64,000 bases of DNA, taken from Folioceros fuciformis (taxonomy: Eukaryota). Positions within the stretch are counted from its first letter, which is position 1. Every line of letters starts with the position of its first letter. The stretch is from NCBI GenBank assembly GCA_049999805.1, contig JBNGIO010005405.1, forward strand, positions 1-64,000, written 5' to 3'. The notes beneath the pieces were generated by a model. It was not told the origin of the DNA. It saw nothing but the letters and a program-made list of their open reading frames with translations, and made no database searches. The position numbers were made by a program, and so were the translations under genes. Below are positions 31,117 to 64,000 of the stretch, in pieces.

Positions 31117-34100
31117 TCAGTGTACAAGGGGCTCAGGCTTATGAGAGCGGTTCGTGAAACATTGTGACGGTTCGCTTGACAATTGAGCTTAGGCTAGCTT
31201 ATGTTATTCCTAACACGCCCCCTTAAGCTAGATTAGAGATGAGCTATGAGCCATCAGCTAATGTCATCCCAAATCCACTACACCAGATTTTGTACTTGGG
31301 CTTCGGTAAGGCTTTAGTAAGAACATCAGCCCACTGATCGCTTGTAGGAGTGTAAGCCAGTGATAGTTCACCACTCTCCACCTTCTCACGAAGGAAGTGA
31401 AAATGCATCTTAATGTGTGTTTCAATCGATTGTGAAGCCTTGAGTTTTGAGAAAGCATAATTGTGGACTGGTTGTCACACATCAAACGAATGGGGCTATC
31501 ATGAGGAAAACCAAGCTCACAAAGAAGTCGACATAGCCACACAGCTTCCTTGGCAATGGCAGCAGCAGCAATGTACTCAGATTCAGTCGAACTCATAGCA
31601 ACTATGGTCTGCTTCCTGGACTGCCAACTAACAGCTCCACCTGCCAATGTAAAAACAAAACCCGTATACAATTTTCGAGAATCAGGATCTTCAGCCCAAT
31701 CTGCATCAGTCCAACCACAAAGGTTAGAATCTGAATGCTTTCTATGGTAACAGATGCCTCGACGTCAAGTAGCTTGAAGATATCTTAATATCCTTTTCAC
31801 AAAGGACCAATGAGTAGGACCAGGGTTAGACATAAACTGAGGCGTGTGAGAAGCCAAGAAAGCAATATCGGGATGAGAGTTCTGCACAAGGTGCGGAACA
31901 GAGCCTATAACTTGACAATAAGGTTGAGCTTTCATTGCAGCCCTTGCAGCATCGTCTTGAGGTGACATAACCTTGGTCAACTTCACACCAGCTTGTAAAG
32001 GAGTATCAATCGGATGGCAATTCTTCATGTGGAACCTGGTGAGAACATCATCAACATACTTTGCTTGATAGATGGTGATGATCTGATTTTCAGCATCATA
32101 TTTAACTTGCACACCAAGACAATACTCTAGAATGCCATTATCAGTCATTTTGAATTCTGAGTTCAGCTGTGACTTAGCATGCTTGAGAACCTAAAGACTG
32201 TCAGAAAAGATGGCTAGATCATCGACATAAAGTGCTATGATCACCAGCCCTAAAATTGAGCTTCTGACATAGATATTAGTATCAGCTGTAGTCTTATGAT
32301 AGCTGACCTTAGTCATGTACTGATCAAAACGGTCATACCACGCTCGAGGCGATTGTTTCAGCCCATAGATGGTGCGTTGCAATTTACAAACCTTCTTTTC
32401 CTGTCCAGGAGTGATATAACCTTCAGGTTGAGGCATGAAGGCTTCTTCCTTAAGGACTCCATTAAGAAAGGTAGTCTGCACATCCATTCGATGGACATGC
32501 AGTCGATGGATTGCTGCCAAAGCTAGCAGCACACACAAAGAGGTAAGCTTAACAACAGGGTTGAATACACCCTCATCAGAGTAATCAATACCCTTCTGTT
32601 GAGTATAACCACGGGCCACAAGCCGGGCCTTGTAACGAGCAAGAGTACCATCCGCTCAGTATTTTTTCTTGTACACCCATTTACAGGTGAAGGAAGATGT
32701 GTGAGTATCCATGTTTAATTAGAGATGAGTGAAGCATATTCTTGATCAGTGGCTATCTTCCACTAAGCAGCTTTGGGTCCGGATAGAGCCTTAGAGATAG
32801 ATGCTGGTTTGCCCCCTTGAGGAGGACGGGCCCAAGCACCATAGCCATGAGAAAAGTCCAAGTCTGCAAACTTGGTGGCTGGCACCCCTTGGGTGGAACA
32901 AGAAGAACGACGTAAAACAGGACTAGGAGGAGGGCCCATAATGCCGGGAGAGAGATGGCGAGGAGGTGAATCAGCTAAATCAAAAGAGCCAAGAGAAGGA
33001 AGAGAGTCACCAGATAAAGGAGGCCCCTCAAGCACTGCACTACGAGGAGAGGAAGGAGAAGAATCGGGGAAGAGACTTGCACTCCAACCCCAATCATCCT
33101 TGGAGCCAACCGTATGAGGGGGAGATGTCGGTGAAGCAAGCTCAACAGAGGGAACCTCAAGAGAATTATTAGGGTTTGGAGTAGGAGCCAAGTTGGTAGG
33201 TGGAGTCGAAAGAGAAACCAATGGAGGAACAACAACAGGGTTAGGAACTACAGGAACAGGGTAAGGGATAGATGGAGGGGAGGGCATCGGAATAAGAGAG
33301 TCCTCATCATAAGTGATGACTCCAGAATCTGAAGAGAAATTGTCAGATGGAGGGGCGCCCCCAGGAGCGGAAGCATGCAAAAAAGGTGTCTCATCAAATA
33401 TCACATTACGGCTGACAGTAACGCATTTGGTAGCCTTGTCAAGCAATTTGTATCCTTTGATACCCTCATCTTCACCATATCCAATGAAAGTCAGCTTCTT
33501 CGACGTAGGGTCAAATTTCTTATGTAGCTTGGAAGGAATGTGTTGATAGGCATCGCAGCCAAAGATTCATAAGTGTGTGATGGAGGGCTTCCTCCCAGTC
33601 CAACACTTAAACGGTGTTTAAGTTGGGAGTGAGGTAGTACTGCAGCGGTTCTGAACATAGCAAGTAGTAGCAGTGGCATCTGCCCGGAGAAAGTTAGGCA
33701 AACTTGCAGCAAGCAGGTTAGTGCGGCCACCCATGATTACTTCCTTTATGCGATTCTTAGCTTTACTGTTCTGCTGCTAGGAATAACGAGTGGCCATTTG
33801 ATGTTGAATACCCGCAGCAAGGAGAAAGGGTTTGAAGGCGATAAACTCGCCACCACCGTCTGTGCGCAAGACTTTGATGGTGTGGCCTGTGAGATTTTCA
33901 ACAAGAGCCTTGTACTTGCGAAAGGCAGTTAGGGCTTCGTGCTTATGACGAAGAAAGTAGAGGTGTGTGTAATGGCTGAAATCATCCAGGAGCAAGAAGA
34001 GATACGAATGGCCACCTAGGGAGACAATTTGCATCGGACCACTGAGATCAGCATGGATAAGTTCGAGAACCTTGGAGGTGCGACTGGAAGAGTGAGGATA

Positions 34101-35546
34101 AGAGTGAACCTTATGTTTTCCAAGAACGCAACCACTACAAAGAGGTATATCTTAATGAACTTAAGAAGGCCAAGAACCATGTCCTCCTTAGACATTCTTT
34201 TGATGTCGTGAAGGTGATGATGGGCTAACCGTAAATGCCAGAGCTTTGATTCTAATTCCACAAGCAAGTAGGTAGCGCTAAGACTAAGAACGGGAGCCGA
34301 TTGGCTAGGAAATATGCCACGAGCTACCGGATACAATCTGCTACAGGGAGGGCACGTGAAAGTCACAACGTCACCCTCTCGTGAAAAGGTATGTATGGTA
34401 CAACCTTGTTGAGTGAAAGAAATCCTACTTTGATCATGTGAGAGACACTTGAATATAGAAAGCAGATTGATTACCAAGCTAGGGACATGAAGAACGTCCC
34501 TAATCATAACCACTTGATTAGTAGGAAGTTGAACTTGGACAACGCCCTTGCCGGTGGCATGCAGAGTGACAGCACTTCCAACTTGAATAGGAAAAGGTGT
34601 TGATAATTTGTCAAGAGTGAGAAACCACTCACGATGAGAGGTCATGTGCTCTGTAGGGCCAAAATCCATGAGCCATTCATCATTGGCTTGGGAAAAAGGC
34701 AAAGTACGGTCCATGAAGAGAAAGGCGGACTTAGTAGCATGAGCAGAGGGCTTAGGTGTGGAACTCGGAGAAGGTATGTCAACACTATTAGCCCTATCCC
34801 TTTTAGGCTTCCTACCGTCATCGTTTGGCACAATAATGGTAGACTTTGTCTTTATGTGCAGGATTAGGTGAAGAAAACCAAGGTGTTTTATCAGCGCCAA
34901 AACGAGGCTTCCAAGGTTTCCTACCACTAGTGTAAAGGACCGTAGAGCCCTATGGAGAAGGAGACATAGAGAGGGAAGACTGCTTCATCATGCCTTCATG
35001 CATGATAAGAGCAATAAGGGAGGTCAGGGATAGAGCCTTAGAAGTACTCATTTGAGTAGAAATAAAGGGACCCCAGGAAGGGGTGAGAGCCCTAAGGAGA
35101 TGCATGACTTGAGTCTCTTCATCTAATTTGAGACCTGTAGAAATTGCAGCATCTAAAAATCCTTGCCATGATTCGAGGAATTCTAAGACAGGTTGATTTT
35201 CACCTAGCTTGCAGGCTAAAAGGAGATCTTGGGCATGTAACCGTGAAGCTACACTCGCCTCTTGGTAAGTACTTGTAAGTTTGCCCCACATCTCTTTAGA
35301 AGTAGGTAATCATTTGATAATGGGGATCAAGCGATCACCAACATGTAATAAAAATATCTAACCTAGCTTGTGAATCTTTGGCTAACCATTCAGGCTCGTC
35401 GGCCTTTGATACCCTAAGAGGAAAGGAAGATGTTGATCGTAATCAGTGTACAAGGGGCTCAGGCTTATGAGAGCGGTTCGTGAAACATCGTGACAGTTCG
35501 CTTGACAATTGAGCTTAGGCTAGCTTATGTTATTCTTAATAGAAGT

Positions 35547-39102: not shown

Positions 39103-42100
39103 CTATGGTGTGTGGTCTCCAACGCCGCCCGCCAGAAAGGTGTGCACTTCCTCGTCATGCGCTATCCAGCTCCAGCCTGGCTCTTTCCACGCACTTTCCG
39201 TTTTCCTGCGCTTGTCCACAACCCGGGCGTCCTCTAGCAGGCCCGCATCAGCATACATCTGTGACATCAACACGTATGCTGCAGCATTTGTGGGTTGCAG
39301 ACGCACTGCCAAATCGAAGACTTGTTCTCCCAGAGATATATTACTGTGCTTCCTGCAGGAGCCCAGCACAGACATCAACATGGCAAGAGTGGGCTGCATT
39401 GGCATACTTGACAAGAGCTCTTCTACCATTGTGAAGCGTCCTGCACGACCCAGGAGATCTATCATACAGGCATAGTGCTCAGCTCTGGGAGCTATCCCGT
39501 GATGTATGTCCATGGATTTAAAGCACTGCACACCTTCCCACACCAGGCCAGCATGACTGCAGGCAGAGAGAAGCGAAAGGAACGTGACTTCATTCGGCTG
39601 GATGCCTGCCAGCACCATTTTTTCGTAGCACAGGAGAGCGTCCTGACCCATCCCGTGCTGACCATATGCTGCAAGAATTGCATTCCACGTCACCTCATTC
39701 TTTGTGGGCAGACTTTCAAACACTCTGCACGCATCGTCTAAACTCCCACATTTGGCATACATGTTCACCAGGCAGCTGCCCACAACGACATCCACTTCCA
39801 AACCTCTCGCTCGAACCTGAGCATGAAGCTTATGCCCCGTGTGCAATGCTCCGACGCTAGCACATGCCTTCAGGAGACAGGCGAATGTAACATGATCAGC
39901 GGCCGTGATTCCACGGTGACGCATCACGGCATAGAGATCAAGGGCCTCCTGCCCCAGCCCGTGCACGACATATCCCGTCAGCATCACATTCCAGGTCAGG
40001 ATGTCTCTGGTGTCCAGAATGTCGAACACTTTCCGGGCATCATCCAAGCACCCACATTTCGCATACATGTCCACCAGACAGCTCCCGACACCTGAATTAG
40101 CTTCCAAGCCCATTCCCATAACCTGCGCGTGGAGTTGCTTTCCCTGCTCCAAGGCTCCGATGCTGGCACACACTTTCAGAAGGCAACTGAACGATGCGTG
40201 ATCAGCAGGAGTGACACTTTCCTGCTGCATGCTTGCATAAAGATTGAGAGCTTCTTGTACTAGTCCATGCTCGGCGTAGCCCATCAGCATGGCAGTCCAG
40301 GACACCACAGTTTTTGTCTCCAACTTGTTGAACACACTTTGAGCATCACCGAGTTGACCGCATTTTGCATACATGTAAACAAGACAACTCCCGACAAATG
40401 AATCGTTATCAAGGCCACGTTCCTGAAGCTGCACATGAAGCTGCTTACCCTGGTCCAAGGCTCCGATATTAGCACTTGCTTTCAGGAGGCACACAAATGT
40501 CACATGATCAGCTAGAGCCATGCCCTCCTGCTGCGTGCTTGCATACAGAGACAGCGCTTCTTGGCTTAGACCGTGCTCTTCGTACGCAGTGAGCATGGCA
40601 GTCCACGTCACCACATCTCTTGTAGCTGACTCGTCAAACACCCGGCGGGCATCCTCTAAGCTCCCACACTTTGCATACATGTCCACCAGGCAGCTGGCAA
40701 TGACCACGTCGGCTTGCAGGCCCATCTCCTGAACCTGGTCATGTAGCTGCCTTCCTTTCTCCAATGCCCCGATACTTTTACATGCTTTCAAAAGGCACAC
40801 AAAAGTTATGTGATCTGCTAAAGTAACGCCTTCTTGTTGCATCGATGAATAGAGAGACAGGGCTTCTTCACCTAGCCCACGCTCAGCATATCCTGCGAGC
40901 ATCACGTTCCAAGTCACCACATTTCTTCTAGTCATGTTGTCAAAGGCAGCCCGGGCCTCATTTAAGCTTCCACATTTTGCATACATATCTATGAGGCAGC
41001 TCCCCACCATCACCTCAGTTCCGAGCCCTGCTTCCTGTATTTCTGAATGAAGCTGCCTTCCCCGGTGTAGTGCTCCACTGCTAGCACACGCTTTGAGCAG
41101 GCACAAAAACGTGACATGGTCAGGGAGAGTGATTCCCTCCTCTTGCATATTTGCATAAAGAGCAAGAGCTTCTTGCCCACGCCCGCCGTGAGCATACCCT
41201 CCAAGCAGCGCATTCCATGTGACCACATTTCTCGAGTCCAACTTGTCAAAGACCATGCGGGCATCCTCCAACCTCCTACATCTTGCATACATTTCCACCA
41301 GGCAGCTCCCTATAAATACATCAGACTCCAGCACACTACTCAGGATATCGGAGTGGACCTGCCTGCCTGACGTCAGATCTTCAGCACTGGCACAAGCCTT
41401 CAGTGCTGCCACAAAGAGATGATTATCTGCCAACATCTGGGATGAGTGTCGCATACTCAAATAGATCTCGATTGCCTGCCTGGCCTGCCCATTATCAACA
41501 TGTGCCTCAATTATGGAGGACCACGAGTGAGCATTGGGAGCAGCAACTCCATTAAAGACCTGCAATGCATCCTCCAGCCTCCCATAGGCAGCGTACATGC
41601 GGATGACGTGATTAGCCAAGAATCTGCTGCCCACATACCCACTTCTGACAATGAGGGAATGCACACCCCTGCCAGCGCCAACATCTTTGTGTGCAATGCA
41701 CCTCTTGATGACCTGACGGAAGAAAGCTGCGGACACATACCACCCTGGCCGCACTAGAACGTCCAGAACCTCAACGGCCTCCCTCAGATGTCCCTCTTCA
41801 CGTGATTTATCTCCCTTGCCGTGCACTGTACCCATAACGGGAACTTGGGGGCTGCCTGCATTGTGTCGTGATCAAAACACCAGCCCTAAACAGTGTACTC
41901 ACATGAGCATTATCACCACAAGTGCTCAAGTTACCTCATCTGACATGTACCGGCATCACTGCGCAGAGCTAGCCAGCGACTTCTCCCGCCATTGTATCTG
42001 CCCAGGTGCCTCCGCTGCCAACAGACAAAACATGAGCATCTGTCAAAGAATGCATCATGCAGTGATTTACAACATCAGGAGGTGCCACAAGGTCAGCAGA

Positions 42101-47908: not shown

Positions 47909-50848
47909 TCATGGCGATTCATCTGCTGGTGAAAATAGTGACACAGATTGCCATTGGTGTCGACTACTGACCTTGGATGCTTTCAGGTGTTGGTCGATCT
48001 TGTTCCCAATCCCAGGATCTCTTGCTAGCATCTCCATCAGACCGCCACCGTGCACCCGACCTTCCGGAAGAGAAAGCGAATTCATGTTGAAGGCTCCATC
48101 ATCGGAGGTTCTCGAGGTGAGGACCTCACCAAGCTTACCACGGCTCGAGGGGGTTATGTCAGCAGCGCCCAAGTTTTGCATCGACAAGGGAACGAGTACC
48201 TTCGGCGGAATAAGTGATCCCAATAATGTAGTCTGGGACGGAGGATAACTGCCTGAGCTGACACGGTGGAGAGTTGCTGAGGGAGTGACCAATACTCCAG
48301 TCATGGAACTGGTTCCTTGAGGAAGGGGCCTGGAGGAAGCACCGAAAGCTGATCCCACCACTGACAACCCACTGTCCAAACCAGACTCGGTAGCTCCTGC
48401 TGCTGGTGGAGCCCATGAGTTCGCGTTGGCAGTTTCCATTCGTGACAGGTCCTCTTCACTAGAATCGATGCCAGACTCACCGAAGTCACGCATTTCAGAA
48501 TCTCCACTTGCAGTTTCTGTGAGGCCTGTTGTGCTTCCTGATGGATCTGCTGTTCGTTTGGTCAGTGTGGGTCCTGGCACAAGCCCTCGAAACAGGCCAG
48601 GTGAGAGTCCAGGGCCAATGACAGAACCCGCATGAACCCTAGTGTCATGCACAAGCCCACTATGAGCAGCACAAAGGCCGGTCTTCCCCCGGGCAAATCT
48701 CTCACAAGGCTCGGGTTTCAACGTACCCCCAGCCAAAGACACACCATCACATGCGTATGCAAAAAATGGCGATCCCTCTACACCCCACTGACACCGCTTG
48801 CCTCCACCGTGAGCCTTGCAGAAATCTGTACTTCCCTGGGCACTCTTCCCACAAGCTTCGAACTTGCATCGCTTTCCTCCTCCATGTCGAACACAGTGAT
48901 CCGTCCTCCCCCGAGCACTTTTCGAGCAACCCTCAACAGCACAGCGCTTACCACCACCATGGGCAACACAGAAGGCTGTCCCCCCGTGCACACTCTTGCT
49001 GCATATTCCTCCCCCTTCATGCATGCATCTCTTGCCGCCTCCGTGGCCCTTGCAAAGAGGCGTGCTCCCCTCGGCGCCTTTATTACAACCTGCAATCATA
49101 CATCGTTTCCCTCCCCCATGGGCTTTGCAAAACATTGTACTTCCTTGAGCACCTTTGGTGCAACCTTGAAATTGGCATCTTCTGCCACCTCCATGCGAAA
49201 TGCAAAGCCCAGAATATCCCTCTGCACTCTTTGTGCACCCTTCAGTCTGGCATCTCTTTCCTCCACCATGCCTAATGCACAGCCCGGAACGGCCTCTGGC
49301 AGCTTTAGAGCAGCCCTCAGAGCTGCACCGGCGTCCCCCCCCGTGCCCTATGCAGTAATCTGTCTTGCCTTCGGCACTCTTCGTGCACCCCAGCTTTTGA
49401 CACCTTCGCCCGCCACCATGTGCCTTACAATACACAGTGCGCCCTTCCGCTCCCTTGTTACACCCTTGTTTCTCACATCGGCGACCTCCTCCATGAGCTA
49501 TGCACAAGCCAGAGGCACCTCGAGCCCCTTTCCCACACCCACGGAACTTGCACACTTTGGACACCTTCTCAGACGGTGGTACAGATGCTGAAGTGGTGGA
49601 CGTCGTGCAGCTGGTTGATGTTCTCATGCTCATCGGGAGCTCCTGCTCCACCCTATTCACATGACACTCCGGCACAGGCTCAGCAGGCCTGGGAACTTTC
49701 GGCAAATGTTCGTGTACGTGACTGCAAGGGGGCGCCGGATGAGGACTTCCCATCAGCAAAGACGGCATGAAACCACCACTGGTCCTCCATCGAGCGGACG
49801 AAGAACCCTCGTCCAACACAGGCACAGGACCACCAGATGCTCTGACAATTTCTCGGTTATCCACCGCAATTTCGCGCAATCCCAGCTCTAAGAGCATGCC
49901 AGACTCGCAGTGAGCCTTCCTCATGCTCGAAAGCTTTTCTCCTTCCCTATTCTGGCCAGAAAGATTCCCCATGGACCCAAGCTCCAAAATAAAACCCGGA
50001 CTGTTCTCCATGTGCCTGGACAGGCCACCTCGTCTAGTCCCCTCAAATGACCGCCCACCTCTGCTTACAGATTCACCAAGATTTCCCCTTTGACCTAACT
50101 GCAACTGTACACCCGAATTCAAGTTGTGGTCTTCGTCAGGATGATTGTAAACGGATCCAGAATCCCTCGACTCTCTGGACTGGCTGCAGTCCAGATGACT
50201 AAACAAAAGCCCGTCACATCCAGACCCGATGGACAGAAACCCATCAGACGCTCTGGACCTCACAGACGAACCCAAGAACGAGCCTTGACTGTCCGGACTC
50301 TCCGAGATAGTGTCCATCTGACCCAACGACAGAGTGGTGGGAGAATCAATATCAAAGCAGAAATTGCCCCCCGAAAAACTAGCAGCACCTTGGCTGGGCC
50401 GGATGTCGATAGGGGAGCTCCCTTGTCCCAGGACAAGAGAGCTGCCCAGATCCTCCTTCAAACCACTCCCCTTTGCACCCCTCTTCCTCTTCCCCCCGGA
50501 GGAGCTGGCTTGGCCACGCCCATCCCTGGGAGCTTCAGTTGGACAATCAATCTTCGGGCCCCAAGACCAACATCCAGCAGAATAGATATTACCACCATCC
50601 ATCTCCCTGGGAGTGTCCGTCCCGATGGACAAAGTCGTGGTGATGGCAGATTGGGAAGAATGCACGTACTGGAGGTCGGGATCATTCAACCTGGTCACGA
50701 GCTGCTCGCTTCTTCCATCCCCGCAGAAGGGAAAGTTGCTTCTCTGCTGCACGTTCTGCACTCTCCCATCTCCTGCATGCAGAAAACTAAAAGCCTGCGA
50801 GGATCCTGCCACTCTGCTGTCCCCATAGGATTCGCGCCGCCCAGTCAT
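47909..50848 (-). CDS. WRKY19-like Cys/His zinc-finger repeat protein (At5g64550/At1g64140-like), single coding exon, 979 aa
   Basis: Ten C-x4-C-x-K-x-A-x-G-x4-C-x2-HGGG modules plus a degenerate eleventh, L(E/Q/S)LG motifs, LDEGSSSA, and a C-terminal PEGRVHGGGL. Confidence 0.9.
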   Translation of the reverse strand: MTGRRESYGDSRVAGSSQAFSFLHAGDGRVQNVQQRSNFPFCGDGRSEQLVTRLNDPDLQYVHSSQSAITTTLSIGTDTPREMDGGNIYSAGCWSWGPKIDCPTEAPRDGRGQASSSGGKRKRGAKGSGLKEDLGSSLVLGQGSSPIDIRPSQGAASFSGGNFCFDIDSPTTLSLGQMDTISESPDSQGSFLGSSVRSRASDGFLSIGSGCDGLLFSHLDCSQSRESRDSGSVYNHPDEDHNLNSGVQLQLGQRGNLGESVSRGGRSFEGTRRGGLSRHMENSPGFILELGSMGNLSGQNREGEKLSSMRKAHCESGMLLELGLREIAVDNREIVRASGGPVPVLDEGSSSARWRTSGGFMPSLLMGSPHPAPPCSHVHEHLPKVPRPAEPVPECHVNRVEQELPMSMRTSTSCTTSTTSASVPPSEKVSKVCKFRGCGKGARGASGLCIAHGGGRRCEKQGCNKGAEGRTVYCKAHGGGRRCQKLGCTKSAEGKTDYCIGHGGGRRCSSEGCSKAARGRSGLCIRHGGGKRCQTEGCTKSAEGYSGLCISHGGGRRCQFQGCTKGAQGSTMFCKAHGGGKRCMIAGCNKGAEGSTPLCKGHGGGKRCMHEGGGICSKSVHGGTAFCVAHGGGKRCAVEGCSKSARGRTDHCVRHGGGKRCKFEACGKSAQGSTDFCKAHGGGKRCQWGVEGSPFFAYACDGVSLAGGTLKPEPCERFARGKTGLCAAHSGLVHDTRVHAGSVIGPGLSPGLFRGLVPGPTLTKRTADPSGSTTGLTETASGDSEMRDFGESGIDSSEEDLSRMETANANSWAPPAAGATESGLDSGLSVVGSAFGASSRPLPQGTSSMTGVLVTPSATLHRVSSGSYPPSQTTLLGSLIPPKVLVPLSMQNLGAADITPSSRGKLGEVLTSRTSDDGAFNMNSLSLPEGRVHGGGLMEMLARDPGIGNKIDQHLKASKVSSRHQWQSVSLFSPADESP

Positions 50849-50903
50849 GTTTCCTCACGCCACCCGCCCACCCCTCCGCCCACGTCCACAACAAGCTCTG
50901 CAA

Positions 50904-57100: not shown

Positions 57101-58628
57101 TTATCAACATTCCAACCCATATTGCAGCGATCATCACGTTTAGAAAGAGCACCCATCGTAGGAAAGCAAACGCCAGCATCACGGCTGACCCAAAGGCTCC
57201 TTCGATTGCTTTGAGAGATTCCAACCAGGGGCTCCAATGAAATTTCCATCTTTTGGTCTGGAGATGCAGTGTGTCAGGGAAAACACTAGTAAATGAACGG
57301 AGCAAAGGGGATAAATCGTCACAGTTCGATGGGGATGAACACACCCCCTGAGCAGCTTTCTTAAGTCGTCGCTTGTATGCCCAGCGCTGGAAGCAGGAGC
57401 ATCTGCCGAAGGTGGACGCTTTGGGATGGCCATCCTTTTCAATCAATTCGATTCTTTCTTTAGCCCTTTTCACAGTATCTGAGACCTGCCCACGTACAGG
57501 AATGCATTGTTAGCCCCAAATCGACATCATCGTAGGCCTCCACCCTGTCAATTTCACAACATCAAGGACCACCAAACTTATGGGTGAAAAGACCTCTACC
57601 CCATAATGTTCCAGTCTAAGGAGTGAGCTGCAGCAGTCAGAAGTAAAAACGCTTAAAAATTTGCCATTAATTTTTGTTCGAAAAGGAAGCTGTAGCAGTC
57701 AGGAAGATTGGATTTGAACCATTTTCCGATGCATGTCCTGCTCGGCAGCATCCATGTTCTCCTGTTCGACATTTCGTTGCGATCCTTCTCTGAAAGGAGC
57801 TTCTGCGCTCCCTCCTTTCCCGAATCCCTTTTGGTGCACAACCGAAGTCTTCTTGGATGACGATGAGATGGTATCTCTACTAAACCTGCTTGCAGGTAGA
57901 CGACTGTCAGGGTTCCCGGCTGGAATATCTGCTGCCCCACCCTGGCTGCTGGGGGAGACCTCAGGAGGCTGATCAATCACAATGGCTGTTTCAGCAGCCG
58001 CTTCTGACACGGCATACTGCGCAGAATTTGGGAGGGAAATCGGCGATGCTGAAGGACCTGTTAAGAGTGAAGGGGCCAGGCTAACATGAGAGCCAGCTGG
58101 CATTCCTTCAGGACTGTCGAGCAAAGCATCTTGTGCACTTCCAGCAGCACCTGTGGCAGGCATCTCCTCCCTGTTGCCAACATGCATGATCCTTTCTCGG
58201 ATTGGTTGCTCAGATTGTGAGGAGAGGCCAGTCATGGAATTCTTGCGATACCGCGGCCTTGGAGACTTGGAGTCATCTGGATACCCCAAAGGTGCTATCC
58301 TGAAATCGTGGGCTGATGGTGCAGACTCACGCACCTCCGGACGAGGAGGAATGAACTGAGACCTAAACTGGCTCTGCTCAGCACGAGTAGAATCCAACTC
58401 AAGAAAGGTTGCTGGATGGGAGGATAGAACACTACGACGAGGTGGACTGGCATCATGAGAGAAAATGGACATAGGCTCGATCGTGTCCGCCTTCGGTACC
58501 ACTGCAGGGTCCAAGGGTGGAAGCTTGCCTCTAGGTTGAGCCATGTTCTCAGGCTTGATATCCTGTGCGCGTAAGGGGACCCATTTCTGAGGGTGGAATA
58601 TCCTCTTGCCTCCAGATGACGAGGCCAT
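54109..58628 (-). CDS. Transmembrane channel-like (TMC family) protein, multi-exon
   Basis: Collinear TMC motifs: W...LKAIEGAFGSAVMLAFAFLRWVLFLN; YFGGY; YPTA; VFTSWDF; IRTELQELI; IENWNP; CVENTVGAQLIRL; SVENMALDVLYLEALIWIGSCFAP...VTFY; FCGP. Long disordered N-terminal exon. Start and last exon are uncertain. Confidence 0.85.
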
Positions 58629-59313
58629 GAAGGTCAGATTGGCGAGCCAGGCAGACACGGCTCGTCTACATCAAGGCAGCTGGGAAAGAGAGGCAGAAAG
58701 AGATGAAATCTTCGCTGTCCATGCCGTTTCTTTACCAAAAGGCCCTGCCAGCAATTGATGCATTGTGTCCAGGCATGGTGCCTAACACAAGAGGAGACCA
58801 ATTGCACGCATATGCATTGAAACAATCGCCACCAGAGCTTCCATCACCTAGCTCGCACCCACAAACCCTACAAAATAGCAGCTGCCATCCAGAACAAACT
58901 GGGACATGCTCCCAATTCACCTGTGGCCCAGTACAAGGAACCAGCAGATGCAGTGGGCAAAACACACAAAGAAGCAGCCATGGGCAGAATTATCGTATGC
59001 ACAGGGAGGCGAACTACACCGCAGCAACTTTATCGCCTCGATCACCAGACTCCATCATGCTCATTAATCGCCCCCACATTTTTTCTTCAATCTGAAGTCG
59101 CCACACCTGACAGTTGGCTTTTGTCTCTCCAGTTTCATGTGACAATTGCTACAACCGTTTTGCCCGGTAAAAGCCATTTTCGCCTAGTATTCATAAGACC
59201 TGTGCTGGAAATGACACGCATCATCCCTCTCTGTTCATCCTGGTTTGGCGACACCAGCGGAACCTTCACAATGACACCGTGGAGTTGAACCCTACGAATG
59301 CCTACTCAGGATT

Positions 59314-62300
59314 TCATGTGCAGCCCGTTAAACCAGAAGCGAGCTCCTGCAATTTTGCATATAGCTCCTTCCTCTCTGGGTGGTTGTGGTCTTCCACCAA
59401 AAAGGAGTGAACCTGATTGTTCAGCTCAATCCAGGTCCTCCCAGGTGTTTTTTTCACTTTGGCAGCTACCATCCTCCTCCTCAGTTCTGCCTCCTCTTCC
59501 CACATGCCTGCTGCTATGTACATTTCTGACAACAGCACGTAAGCAGCTGCATTTGCAGGTTCGAGCTTCACAATATTCTCAAAGCATTGTCTCCCCAAGT
59601 CCGTGTTGCCCTGAGTTTTGCATGCTCCAAGCAGGGACATCCACAGTGTGACATCAGGCTGCACAGGCAATTCATACAACAACGCCTCCGCCTCAGACAA
59701 GTGGCCAGCACGGCCTAGAAGGTCAACCAAGCACGTGTAGTGCTTAATGTCTGGACTTATCCCAAATCTTTGGGACATTGTTTTGAACACACCGTGGCCC
59801 TCAGTCCACAAGCCAGCATGACTGCAGGCAGATAGAATGCAGGCGATGGTGACATCATTTGGCTTCAAGCCTTCTTGTTGCATCCGCTCAAACAACACAA
59901 GCGCCTCCTGAGCACGCCCATGCTGAGCAAGTCCTGCTATCATCACAGTCCAAGAGACGACATCTTTCTGTGATAAGCTGTCAAACACAAGAACTGCTTC
60001 CTCTAGGCTGCCACATTTGGCATACATGTCAATAAGGGTGTTTCCGATGACTCCATCCAGCTTCAGCATACATTTCTTCAGCTCTGAGTGAAATTGTCTG
60101 CCCTGATTGAGAGCAGCTACGCTGCCACATGCCTTCAGGATGCTCAGAAAAGCTATCTCGTTTGGCTGGACACCCTCGGATTGCATTTGCTGAAATAATT
60201 GAAAGGCTCTACTCCCATGTCCGCGCTGAGCATATCCAGCGACCAGTGTCGTCCAAAGCACCAGATCCCGATGTGGCAGCTGGTCAAACACTCTCTGAGC
60301 ATCATCCAGGCTTCCATATTTTGCATACATGTCAACAAGCACGCTCCCAACAGCAAGGTCCGACTTGTACTCAGTCTTGGCAAGCAGGCTATGAACCTCC
60401 TTCCCCTGATTCAACGCTCCTGAGTTGCTGCAGGCTTTGAGAACGTTTATAAATGTCACCTTATTGGGACGTACACCAGACTCTAGCATGTGGTGAAACC
60501 ACTGCAGGGATTCAAAACCTCGTCCATGTTGGTTGTACCCCCCAATCAAAGAAGTCCATGATACTACGTCTTTGTTAGGCATACTTAAAAAGACTTTGAG
60601 TGCTTCCTCCAAACTCCCGCATTTGAAATACATGTCAACCAGCGCATTTCCTACGACGTTATCCAGTTGGTAGCCCTTCCTGCTTAGCTGGGTGTGGACC
60701 TGCTTTCCCTCATCTAAGACCCCCAGGGTGGCACAAGCTTTGATGATACTCACAAATGTGACCTTATTAGGCTCCAGTCCCTTTTCTTGCATTTCTCTGA
60801 ACATTCTGAGACTCTCCCAACCCTGCCCGTGCTGGGCGTAACCTGCAATCATTGTGGTCCATGAAACGACAGATTTTTTCTGCATCTTGTCAAAAGTTTC
60901 TCTCGCTTCAATCAAGCTTTCACACTTGGCATACATATTAACAAGACTGTTTGCGACTACAACGTCAGTGTCTAGCCCAGCTTGTATGATGTGTCTGTGG
61001 ATCACCCTACCCTCTGCCAGAGCTGCTGTGCCTGTGCAAGCTCTAAGGACAGCCGCATAAACATTTGAATTTGGCCTAAAGTCTGAAAGTCGCATATCCA
61101 TATACAATTGTATAGCCTTCTTGCCTTCACCGTGGTAGACATGTGCTGCGATGATTGCCAGCCAAGTGTATGCATCTCGCTCTTCCATCCTACAGAATGT
61201 GACATTTGCCTCTGAAAGACTTCCACATCTAGAAAAAAGGTGGATCAGCTTATTTCCCGCTTGAACACCAAAACCGTTATCCAATTCCAGCAATAATGAA
61301 CGTATCCGCCTACCATTGAGCATATCTCTCTGTTGTACGCACATGTTTAACAGATGATGTAAGCTCTCTGTGGACAGTCCGCGGCCCTGAACTTTTGACA
61401 TGATAGCTGCATCAAGTGCACTACTTAGGCTTTCCTTCTCACTTTTTCTCCTAACAACATCGTCCATGCTCACATCACCGAGCACCCTGCATACAAGAGG
61501 ACTAAGGAATTAGCAATCAGTAAGAGAGCCTCTTCGCACATTGACTTGCCATTCAGGTCGTTTAAACCAGTGCTACATGTCTCAACTAGAAACCTACCCT
61601 AGGCTGTTTTGCATTTGGCTCATCAATAAATCCAGCTTTTCGTAGATTTGCTTTCTTTGTGGGTGATCTACATCGTTGACTGAAAAGACGTGCACTTCAT
61701 CTCTAACCTCAATCCAAGTTTTGCCAGGTACTTTCCTCACTCCTGCACTCCTCAACTTCTTTCTCACCTCTGCTTCATCTTCCCACCTGCCAACTGCAGC
61801 ATAGAGGTTCGACATCAGGACATATGCAGCCAGGTTTGAAGGCTCTAACTTCACTAAACATTCAAAAGCATGCCTCCCTAGCTCCAAGTTTCCGTACTTT
61901 TGACATGCGCCAAGTAGAGATGTCCAGACTACGGCCTCAGGTTCCATCGGCATTCTTTCAATGAGCTCTTTCGCTTCATTGATCTGGCCAGCACGTCCTA
62001 AAAGGTCAACCATGCAGGCATAATGGCGCATTCCTGGAACGATCCCAAATTTGTCGGACATTGAGCAGAACAGGCGATAACCCTCATCTAACAGCCCAGC
62101 ATGGCTGCAGGCGGAAAGAACACAAACCAGAGTGACATCATCCGGCTTCAGTCCCTCTCTTAACATTTGCTGGAAGAGTTGAATGGCCTTTCGACCATTC
62201 CCATGCTGAGCATACCATCCAATGGCCGAAGTCCAGGACACTAGATCCTTGTCTGGCATTTTGGCAAAAACGTTCCAAGCATCATCTGGGCTGCCACATT

Positions 62301-64000
62301 TGGCATACATATCAAGAAGCGTGCTCCTGACAACTGCATCAGATTCAAGCCCTCTTGCCTCAAGTAAGGCATGAACCCTCTTCCCCAAGTTCAGTGCCCC
62401 AACCGTGCCACAAGCTTTCAAAAGGTTCAGGAAGGTCACTTTGTCAGGCTGCAGACCCTCTTCTTCCATTCTTACGAAGAGTTTAATAGCATCTTGGCCA
62501 TGCCCAGAACTCCCATAACCTCCTATCATGGTAGTCCAAGACACCACGTCCCTGTTTTCCAGCCTGTCAAAGACCTGACCTGCCTCTTTCAGGGCGCCAC
62601 ATTTCAGATACATGTCAAGGAGGGCATTTCCTACAACAATTTCACCATTTACTCCCTTTTCCACTATCAGAGAATGAAACTGCTTGCCCTTTTCTAGATC
62701 TTGTGCCGCAGCACAAGCGTTCAAGAGGCCCACGAATGTGATACTGTCTGGTTCAAAACCATGCTCCTGCATCTGACAAAACATTTGCAAGGCTTCGCGA
62801 CCACGACCATGGTGAGCAAAGCCTGCAATCATAGCATTCCAGGTAACCAGATTTTTTTCCCGGACATTGTCAAACACTCTACGTGCCTCTTCTAGGCTCC
62901 CACATTTGATGTACATATCAATGACCGAGTTCATCACGAAAACAGTCATCTCAGACGGCGTCTGTTTGATGTGGTTGTGAATCATTCTACCCTCTGTCAA
63001 AGCTCCTACGCATGCACATGCCTTGAGAGCTGCAGCATAAACATAGGCATTAGGTTTAAGGTTGGACTGTCTCATCTCCAGGTACAACTTGATGCCTTCA
63101 TCGCTCTGCCCATGATTGATATGTGTGAAAATCATGGCCTGCCAGGAGTATGTATCTGGTTCACGGACAGCACGGAATGCTTGATTCGCATCCGCCAAGC
63201 AGTTGCATGAGTCAAACATTCGAATGATGTTTCTGTTCAGAAAACTTGAGTTGAGACCCCTTCGCGTGACAAGGGCATGCAACAACCTTCCAACTTCCAG
63301 GTCCTTTCTCTGTATGCACCCTTGCACGATGCTACACAGTACGTGTGTTGGAATCTCAGCACCTTGCTGGTCTATCCACTGGAGAGCACAACATGCCTCT
63401 TTTAGCCGCCCCTCTATACACAGCCTACCAACAACTTCAATATGCCCAGTCAATCTGCGTTCTTTCCCAGACCTGTGAAACATGGAAGCTCAGAGTTGAC
63501 AATGCACTTACAATACAGTCAATGGACATATCATATTTCCACAGTACCCGTTTAGAACATATACCTGGCTGGATCTATTGAGAGGCTGACGCCGGGCTTC
63601 ACTAAGAATTGAGCCCTTTCTTTTAGACCTGATGTCTTTTTCAAAGCCGCTAACCTCGGCTTCACCCAGGAGGGATTCCACCAGCTGTCCGTCCATAAAG
63701 TGTCCTTCGTCACACTATGAACAAAATCTGGGTAGCTCACATCTGTCTGCAACAAACAGCAGAAAATTCAGACCATGAGGGGAAGAGATGACCACTTCGC
63801 GTAATAGGAACCTTAGATAATTGCAGACCTTTCTCCACCTGTGGTCCCACCACAGCGAAGGATTGGTGAAAAAATTTCTCCACAGATCCTCTGTTGCAAT
63901 CGACTGAGCTGCAGGCCATGACTCACGGCTTGTATCCGCTCTGACGTGGGCTGCGGTGCTGACAGTGAAACACGACCAAACCAATGGAGTAATGCCAAGT
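59314..64000 (-). CDS. PDF-motif + tandem double PLS-E+ PPR protein (exons >64000-63829, 63746-63565, 63472-61598, 61486-59314); 5' end outside the window
   Basis: Three GT-AG introns (82, 92, 111 nt) all keep frame. They join LWRNFFTNPSLWWDHRWRK|TDVSYPDFVHSVTKDTLW...PSWV to the 629-aa and then the 723-aa PPR ORF, each ending E1-E2-PG box. The PPR calls are certain; the fusion is inferred from splice signals. Confidence 0.8.

Follow-up and report, generated by a model that had tools for sequence, protein, structure and literature searches.

The window analyzed here is a 64,000-nt stretch of DNA, positions 1 to 64,000 of contig JBNGIO010005405.1 from Folioceros fuciformis (NCBI GenBank assembly GCA_049999805.1), and the locus under study lies on the minus strand at its end, in the region from 59314 to 64000. 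We are highly confident that this end of the window holds a 5'-truncated nuclear gene in which one PDF motif, of the type known from organellar single-stranded DNA-binding (OSB) proteins, is spliced in frame onto a PLS-type pentatricopeptide repeat (PPR) array that has E1/E2 motifs but lacks a DYW domain. The usual picture of a PPR editing factor is a targeting peptide followed by a repeat tract and E/DYW domains. The PDF motif is described as a motif of about 50 residues in OSB proteins (PMC6963530, PMC4166229, PMC6451138).

Three exons carry the PDF motif and the PPR array. Exon A is present as its 3' part (63829 to 64000), with a frame that is open from 63999 and contains no ATG; positions 63829 to 63891 encode the PDF motif's N-terminal half (E-D-L-W...W-W-D-H-R-W-R-K), and the exon ends in phase 0 at the donor AAG/gtctgc after 63829. 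Intron 1 (63747 to 63828; 82 nt, GT..AG, phase 0) interrupts the motif between K and T. Exon B (63565 to 63746) starts at ttgttgcag/ACA and encodes the C-terminal half of the motif at 63639 to 63746, reading T-D-V-S-Y-P-D-F-V-H...N-P-S-W-V-K-P-R-L-A-A-L, and then a linker. Intron 2 (63473 to 63564; 92 nt, GT..AG, phase 2; CCAG/gtatat ... tttcacag/GTCTGG) leads to exon C (61598 to 63472), which is 1,875 nt long, is divisible by 3, has phase 2 at both ends, and encodes the PLS PPR array and, at about 61612 to 61896, the E1/E2 motifs. Exon C ends about 15 residues into the would-be DYW domain region, after its HP..K start, and a stop follows at 61594 to 61596 if the next intron is retained. The first PPR frame as a whole spans 631 codons (61594 to 63489), and all frames of the PDF-PPR gene are intact across more than 700 codons. 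Because exon A lacks an ATG and is open to the window end, and because a contig from a relative extends 670 nt further upstream, the 5' end of the gene lies outside the window.

Evidence of splicing comes from contig runs that are guessed to be RNA, none of them recorded as RNA, which were compared with the window over 58500 to 64000. The contig that extends upstream is a 1,099-nt record from a related organism (run X2, record 13; about 92% identical), which covers 64000 to 63829 and then directly 63746 to 63563; its positions 842 and 843 join 63829 to 63746, with intron 1 exactly removed. Exon B has two GT donors of the same phase, CGAG/gttagc after 63655 and CCAG/gtatat after 63565, and either one yields AG/G (Arg) into exon C at 63472 and stays in the PPR frame. 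The relative's contig passes uninterrupted through 63655, and its match ends at 63563, two bases from the 63565 donor. The longer exon B also raises the score of the spliced peptide by 4.6 bits with a profile of OSB motifs and by 7.4 bits with a profile of PPR-linked PDF motifs, the residues K-P-R-L-A-A-L fitting the profile tails. Since the contig crosses the 63655 donor and the extra residues fit both profile tails, exon B most likely ends at 63565. The donor near 63655, which had been proposed at first, was rejected for its poorer profile fit and because the relative's contig does not use it; a BLASTP comparison of homologues with the short and the long splice form did not tell the two donors apart.

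For the next junction, the relative's contig has 73 further nt past exon B. Depths in run X2 are 12.7, 6.24, and 6.92 in the bins 63284 to 63467, 63468 to 63651, and 63652 to 63835, and they equal the total of records 12 and 13 if the 73 nt fall on 63472 to 63400, an indirect argument from depth arithmetic. From this arithmetic in a relative, together with sequence signals and the colinearity of homologues, we infer the junction between exons B and C. The spliced product gave a single colinear BLASTP alignment, running from the PDF motif into the first PPR repeats, with 10 of the 10 family members tried. The original prediction, made from the letters of the window, had two small exons splicing in frame to the PPR exon. 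It was right about the peptides on the minus strand and the AG/G frame, and the junction between exons A and B is present in the relative's contig; it has to be corrected at exon B, which reaches 63565, and at exon A, which was taken to be small and has a frame open to the window end.

The identity of the motif was assessed with profiles. The first profile (A1), an alignment of nine N-terminal PPR-linked motifs, was used to search a collection of 5.8 billion proteins for longer proteins and returned 759 proteins at an E value of 0.01 or better. Among the 120 matches listed, 17 are named OSBs (OSB1, OSB2, OSB3, or "organellar single-stranded DNA binding protein"), matched at E values of 1e-63 to 1e-32, and 62 carry PPR domains according to Pfam, all of them proteins of Diphasiastrum complanatum (61) except one of Adiantum capillus-veneris. 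The matches to A1 also include two algal-looking entries, P0179 and P0171. The A1 profile locates 63 PDF motifs in the 17 named OSB proteins, and a second, OSB-only profile was built solely from these 63 motifs. Against it, the spliced window peptide with the long exon B scored 40.7 bits (E = 8e-15, Z = 1) over profile positions 1 to 55 of 57, and the form with the short exon B scored 36.1 bits (E = 2e-13, Z = 1). When the OSB-only profile was compared with 2,739 six-frame open reading frames (ORFs) of the window (at least 12 amino acids), just the two exon ORFs matched, exon B at an E value of 5.2e-6 (profile positions 25 to 56) and exon A at 1.6e-4 (positions 1 to 21), the next best being 1.1. 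These two ORFs are adjacent and colinear, and the WWD-to-PDF spacing across the splice junction is that of the homologues. The OSB-profile match is thus significant, and the profile match in both directions supports the homology of the window motif to the OSB PDF motif, in agreement with the original prediction. That prediction had also named PTAC9, which we take to be the same protein as OSB2.

The window PDF scores higher with the PPR-PDF profile (66.5 bits) than with the OSB profile (40.7 bits), and it keeps 21 of 24 highly conserved positions, the differences being D51N, K73S, and E77D. No other PDF copies were found elsewhere in the 64-kb window. With OSB proteins, the window gene shares the core of about 55 residues, W..F/L..NP..WWD.R..K....PDF.H..T...LW....P.WV. 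It differs from them in that no SSB/OB-fold domain is visible, the PDF is N-terminal rather than C-terminal of an OB fold, a PPR array follows, the window has a single PDF copy, and another residue takes the place of one Lys of PDFKHK. When the exon ORFs, which cover the visible part of the gene only, were scanned with Pfam, neither an SSB family nor a family of any other kind was found, the one match being at chance level (0.12). A protein with three PDF motifs likewise had no family in Pfam or NCBIfam, indicating that no model covers the PDF in these collections, which would explain why domain-based surveys missed it.

The PPR part is of the editing type. In Pfam, the first PPR frame matches PPR_2 (PF13041; E = 2.2e-76, 7 stretches) and PPR (PF01535; E = 3.6e-63, 9 stretches), and it contains an E_motif (PF20431) at amino acids 532 to 594 with 70 bits (cut-off, 27.3) and an Eplus match (PF20430) that, at 23.0 bits, is just below the cut-off of 24. 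The Pfam scan found no DYW domain (PF14432) in this frame; the protein would therefore be at most a site-recognition factor for which a deaminase is needed in trans, and the window copy alone is not a complete editing enzyme. The closest relatives of the PPR frame, 120 of which were listed, are lycophyte, gymnosperm, fern, and moss proteins of the PLS/DYW type with 33 to 44% identity; 10 (by regular expression) or 12 (by profile) of these 120 carry a PDF at the N-terminus. The proposal that the PDF is N-terminal to an editing-type PPR is borne out by the PLS array and E1/E2 block in the exon C frame. Compared with E+-type PLS PPR editing factors without a DYW domain, the window gene is alike in its PLS repeats, its E1/E2 block, and its end a few residues into the DYW region, but it differs by the N-terminal PDF, the introns in the coding region, and the splice onto a second array.

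The gene also has many counterparts in the databases, as the original prediction had guessed in allowing for uncharacterized entries: at least 151 PDF-PPR proteins were found, in four land plant lineages. Among the 317 proteins fetched from search listings, which do not amount to a census, 209 carry a PDF by the OSB-only profile, 151 with and 58 without PPRs. By source name, the 151 comprise 79 from Diphasiastrum, 48 from Sphagnum (seven species), 5 from Calypogeia fissa, 1 from Adiantum, and 18 that are unnamed. One PDF copy is present in 117 of them, two in 28, and three in 6, and a DYW-like tail is found at the end of 57. In 150 of the 151, the PDF is N-terminal of the PPR array, the exception being P0131 of Diphasiastrum, which reads PDF-PPR-PDF-PPR. 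A PDF-only query taken from a Sphagnum protein gave 133 matches in the range of 468 to 1491 amino acids, and all 120 of those listed have PPR Pfam domains. PF00436 (SSB) was absent from the Pfam lists of the PPR-type PDF proteins among the matches listed.

These proteins are annotated as "hypothetical protein O6H91_..." in Diphasiastrum complanatum, "CY35_/BDL97_..." in Sphagnum, "unnamed protein product" in Calypogeia fissa, and "GOP47_0023879" in Adiantum capillus-veneris. They share with the window gene the PDF subtype and the same order, namely, a leader, one to three PDF motifs, a PLS array, and E1/E2 motifs, with or without DYW. The window gene is only about 30 to 39% identical to them over the first 330 residues, and it differs in that an intron interrupts its PDF and in that a splice leads from its PPR exon into another PPR array. 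In an alignment of 60 full-length PDF-PPR proteins, conservation reaches at least 90% at 24 positions of the PDF, on par with canonical PPR positions, and this conservation spans moss, liverwort, lycophyte, and fern members. The PDF adjoins the first PPR helix via a short linker, with a median gap of about 0 residues. PDF motifs were also seen in other contexts, namely, in two entries that are possibly fused gene models, one named "ICR2" from Striga (P0172) and one a kinesin from Coptis (P0206), and in 13 copies in Kingdonia protein P0121.

A literature search retrieved PDF-motif papers, including ones on organellar DNA maintenance, none of which ties the PDF to PPR proteins, and it found no description, functional or otherwise, of the combination; the earlier statement that no functional description was known agrees with this. 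The extra domains reported for Physcomitrium PPR proteins are RRM, LAGLIDADG, SMR, NYN, CBS, and SAP, and the PDF is not among them (PMC9459714). The main text of a 2026 survey of editing-factor fusions contains neither "OSB" nor "single-stranded," and the PDF is not among the fusions given there (PMC13386178). With the same high confidence as for the identity of the gene, to which this judgment is tied, we regard PDF-PPR proteins as a family of old age that has expanded and occurs in mosses, liverworts, lycophytes, and ferns; it is present in databases, but no description of it was found in the literature.

The fold of the motif was examined in AlphaFold2 models. A Sphagnum PDF-PPR-DYW protein modeled with 60 homologues had a mean predicted local distance difference test (pLDDT) score of 83.9. 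Its PDF was modeled, at pLDDT values of 71 to 87, as a helix (residues 37 to 50), strands at 55 to 57 and 70 to 72, a bridge at L-W, and a helix at 88 to 95, followed by a linker of lower score (62 to 68) before the first PPR helix. In a model of a three-PDF OSB-type protein, the same PDF unit appeared three times, at pLDDT values of 90 to 97. The predicted PDF is thus a compact alpha/beta mini-domain of about 55 residues with the order helix-strand-strand-(strand)-helix, in which conserved Trp, Phe, and basic residues are abundant. Searching PDB by sequence with the PDF profile gave 0 chains at E values up to 1, and the ESM Atlas gave no usable match with the PDF part. Fold comparisons that started from the three-PDF model, by Foldseek (best E value, 3.2) and by VIA-align against 48,161 chains (best Z score, 3.3; 0 chains at 5 or more), gave no clear match, a result that shows neither novelty nor a different fold.

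The relationship between PPR-linked and OSB-type motifs was addressed with a tree built on 63 columns from the 281 PDF motifs that were left of 419 after thinning at 85% identity. One branch, with an SH-aLRT value of 90, contains all 99 PPR-linked PDFs, the window PDF, and a single OSB-type motif (copy 2 of P0201), and it thereby sets the 99 PPR-linked motifs apart from 180 of the 181 OSB-type motifs, with the window motif on the PPR side. The PPR/OSB label requires 2 changes on this tree, compared with a mean of 81 for shuffled labels, and none of 500 shuffles was as low. The nearest OSB motifs are the second PDFs of the two-PDF, SSB-domain-bearing proteins P0170, P0178, and P0191. The consensus of the PPR-linked motifs has FF and an A-x-LAAM tail, versus L-V and S-K-L in the OSB motifs. 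Judged from these motif sequences, an OSB gene with two PDFs seems to have supplied the PPR-linked PDF through a single capture of its C-terminal motif, and the tree fits a capture that predates the divergence of mosses, liverworts, lycophytes, and ferns.

Downstream of exon C, the locus continues into a second array. An intron at 61487 to 61597 (minus strand; 111 nt, GT..AG; donor GG/gtaggt, acceptor gcag/GGTGCT) holds the stop of the first PPR frame and joins the first to the second PPR frame in phase (phase 2). Exon D (59314 to 61486, minus strand; frame 59314 to 61509) encodes a second PLS PPR array with E1/E2 motifs that is 44.6% identical to the first and lies on the same transcript contig. 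This 5,912-nt contig from the same organism (run X1, record 1; 0 mismatches) covers 62856 to 61898, 61793 to 61597, and 61485 to 58500, skipping the 111-nt intron as well as an optional intron ("exitron") of 104 nt (61794 to 61897, minus strand; GT..AG) inside the part that encodes the E motifs. The 104-nt intron is spliced in relatives, too, and is retained in record 10 of run X2 and record 20 of run X5. Given the length and phases of exon C, the forms A-B-C-D and A-B-D are both in frame; they would measure 1,409 and 784 residues, respectively, each counted from the exon B start, and both are computed forms, neither of them seen in a contig. None of the 259 PPR proteins that were fetched has two E-motif blocks, which would make a protein with both arrays unusual.

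Some further splicing and coding features were seen in the window. A contig from a related organism (run X3, record 15) skips 94 nt with GT..AG ends at 62034 to 62127 (minus strand), within the PPR-coding exon, which the same-organism contig does not; splicing the 94-nt, 104-nt, and 111-nt introns together in the window sequence leads to an early stop. Downstream of the second PPR frame, at 57699 to 58670 (minus strand), is a Ser/Pro-rich frame of 323 codons that matches no family; its part from 58500 to 58670 is on the same-organism contig, which has 1,770 further nt on that side. Elsewhere on the minus strand are a 981-codon frame with nine WRKY19-type zinc-finger stretches (47909 to 50854; PF24906, E = 3.1e-71), a third PLS PPR frame of 922 codons with an E motif and no PDF upstream (39103 to 41871), and a retrotransposon remnant with a Pol beta-barrel domain and a gag pre-integrase domain (34016 to 34984).

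As to what the motif does on such a protein, we tentatively favor, as possible though somewhat short of an even chance, a role of the PDF as an accessory binder of single-stranded nucleic acid on an editing-type PPR. PPR tracts bind RNA in parallel, from N to C along the 5'-to-3' direction, and an N-terminal PDF would therefore sit 5' of the RNA element read by the tract. There it might add a sequence-independent grip on single-stranded nucleic acid, the gripped strand being preferably the transcript or else a displaced DNA strand, while specificity would come from the PPR repeats and, for the E+-type member in the window, the DYW deaminase would act in trans. This role is proposed by analogy to AtOSB1, the PDF of which alone suffices to bind single-stranded DNA (ssDNA), with no contribution from the OB fold, as reported (PMC6963530, PMC6451138). 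Identity and mechanism taken together, an OSB-type PDF that serves as such a binder on an editing-type PPR is probably the best explanation of the locus.

Several observations weigh against this explanation. Binding by a PPR-linked PDF is argued from the OSB motif, and AtOSB1 and AtOSB2 are reported to prefer ssDNA over double-stranded DNA (dsDNA) and RNA (PMC4166229), which fits a DNA tether better than an RNA clamp. The window copy has two substitutions, D51N and K73S (P0070 numbering), the latter of which costs it one Lys of the PDFKHK core. The start codon and targeting peptide are, with the 5' end, beyond the window. Run X1, from the same organism, is empty between 63468 and 63835, leaving no contig of the organism's own across the A-B-C junctions, and the contigs in general are only guessed RNA; a processed retrocopy in DNA would look alike, but it would itself still record a spliced mRNA. 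The sole same-organism contig over the 3' part has the 104-nt intron removed, with a frameshift, a stop after five codons, and truncation before the E motifs. Finally, the alignment behind the motif tree is short (63 columns), and the tree itself gives no resolution at 168 of its 278 inner branches.

Other roles for the motif have to be set against the favored one. The PDF might tether the PPR protein to nucleoid ssDNA (transcription bubbles, R-loops, or replication and recombination intermediates) and so couple editing-type recognition to transcription or genome maintenance. The sole reported biochemistry of the PDF is ssDNA binding, above that of dsDNA and RNA (PMC4166229, PMC6963530, PMC6451138), and the PDF core is conserved across OSB and PPR contexts; however, the PPR-linked PDFs make up a separate clade that has a consensus of its own, so their specificity may have shifted, and we consider the tether unlikely, if still worth entertaining. 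It is rather more doubtful that the PDF is a protein-contact or capping module that stabilizes the first PPR repeat, mediates oligomerization, or recruits an OSB or trans-acting DYW partner. The short linker between PDF and PPR array, the existence of members with one to three PDF copies, and the tetramer reported for AtOSB2 (PMC6963530) are all in keeping with contacts of this kind. The PDF is nevertheless also found on members with their own DYW (57 of 151), and DYW recruitment can therefore not be its general role; in addition, its conserved exposed-type aromatic and basic residues would be typical of single-strand binders.

Two further readings deny the motif a role on the PPR protein. In one, the PDF exons are a passenger leader gained by exon shuffling, providing a start codon and targeting peptide while the motif itself is functionless, or the locus is decaying and yields mainly unproductive transcripts. 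The frame-breaking splice in the same-organism contig and the loss of the core Lys would suit such a locus, as would the expansion of PPR families by retroposition, reported in the survey (PMC13386178), which would spread any attached leader. The conservation of the 24 PDF positions across lineages, all but three of them kept in the window, argues against a passenger, as do the long intact frames and the retention of the 104-nt intron in some contigs of relatives, and we find this reading very unlikely. The other reading, which takes the PDF exons as a separate upstream OSB-like gene and the fusion as an artefact, is the most improbable of all. It can draw on the gap in same-organism cover and on the position of the 5' part beyond the window, where an OB-fold exon could lie upstream. 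Yet the order and spacing recur in 151 independent database proteins, and an SSB family is absent from the Pfam lists of the PPR type; the phases match (AG/G), and the depth of the relative's 73 nt past exon B fits exon C. The window PDF, moreover, groups with PPR-linked and not with OSB PDFs, and no in-frame stop or terminator-like end lies between exon B and the donor.

Seed-plant editing factors need helpers (MORF, ORRM, and OZ), and early land plants are thought to use simpler complexes. If an accessory binding role is true, the PDF would be an unrecognized built-in accessory domain on more than 100 PLS, E, and DYW proteins of mosses, liverworts, lycophytes, and ferns, and it would bear on the source of affinity, or on the coupling of editing to the nucleoid, in plants that lack MORFs. 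The PDF motif would then be known to serve in more than genome maintenance. We also speculate, as an improbable extension, that the locus may be a modular specificity switch, in which one leader (targeting peptide and PDF) would be spliced onto array 1, onto array 2 with exon C skipped, or onto both, with the 104-nt intron as an on/off valve, and that the family as a whole may represent a lineage-wide way in which editing factors are loaded, at the nucleoid, onto single-stranded nucleic acid, one that preceded the MORF-type helpers of seed plants. If so, one promoter and one PDF head would serve several RNA targets.

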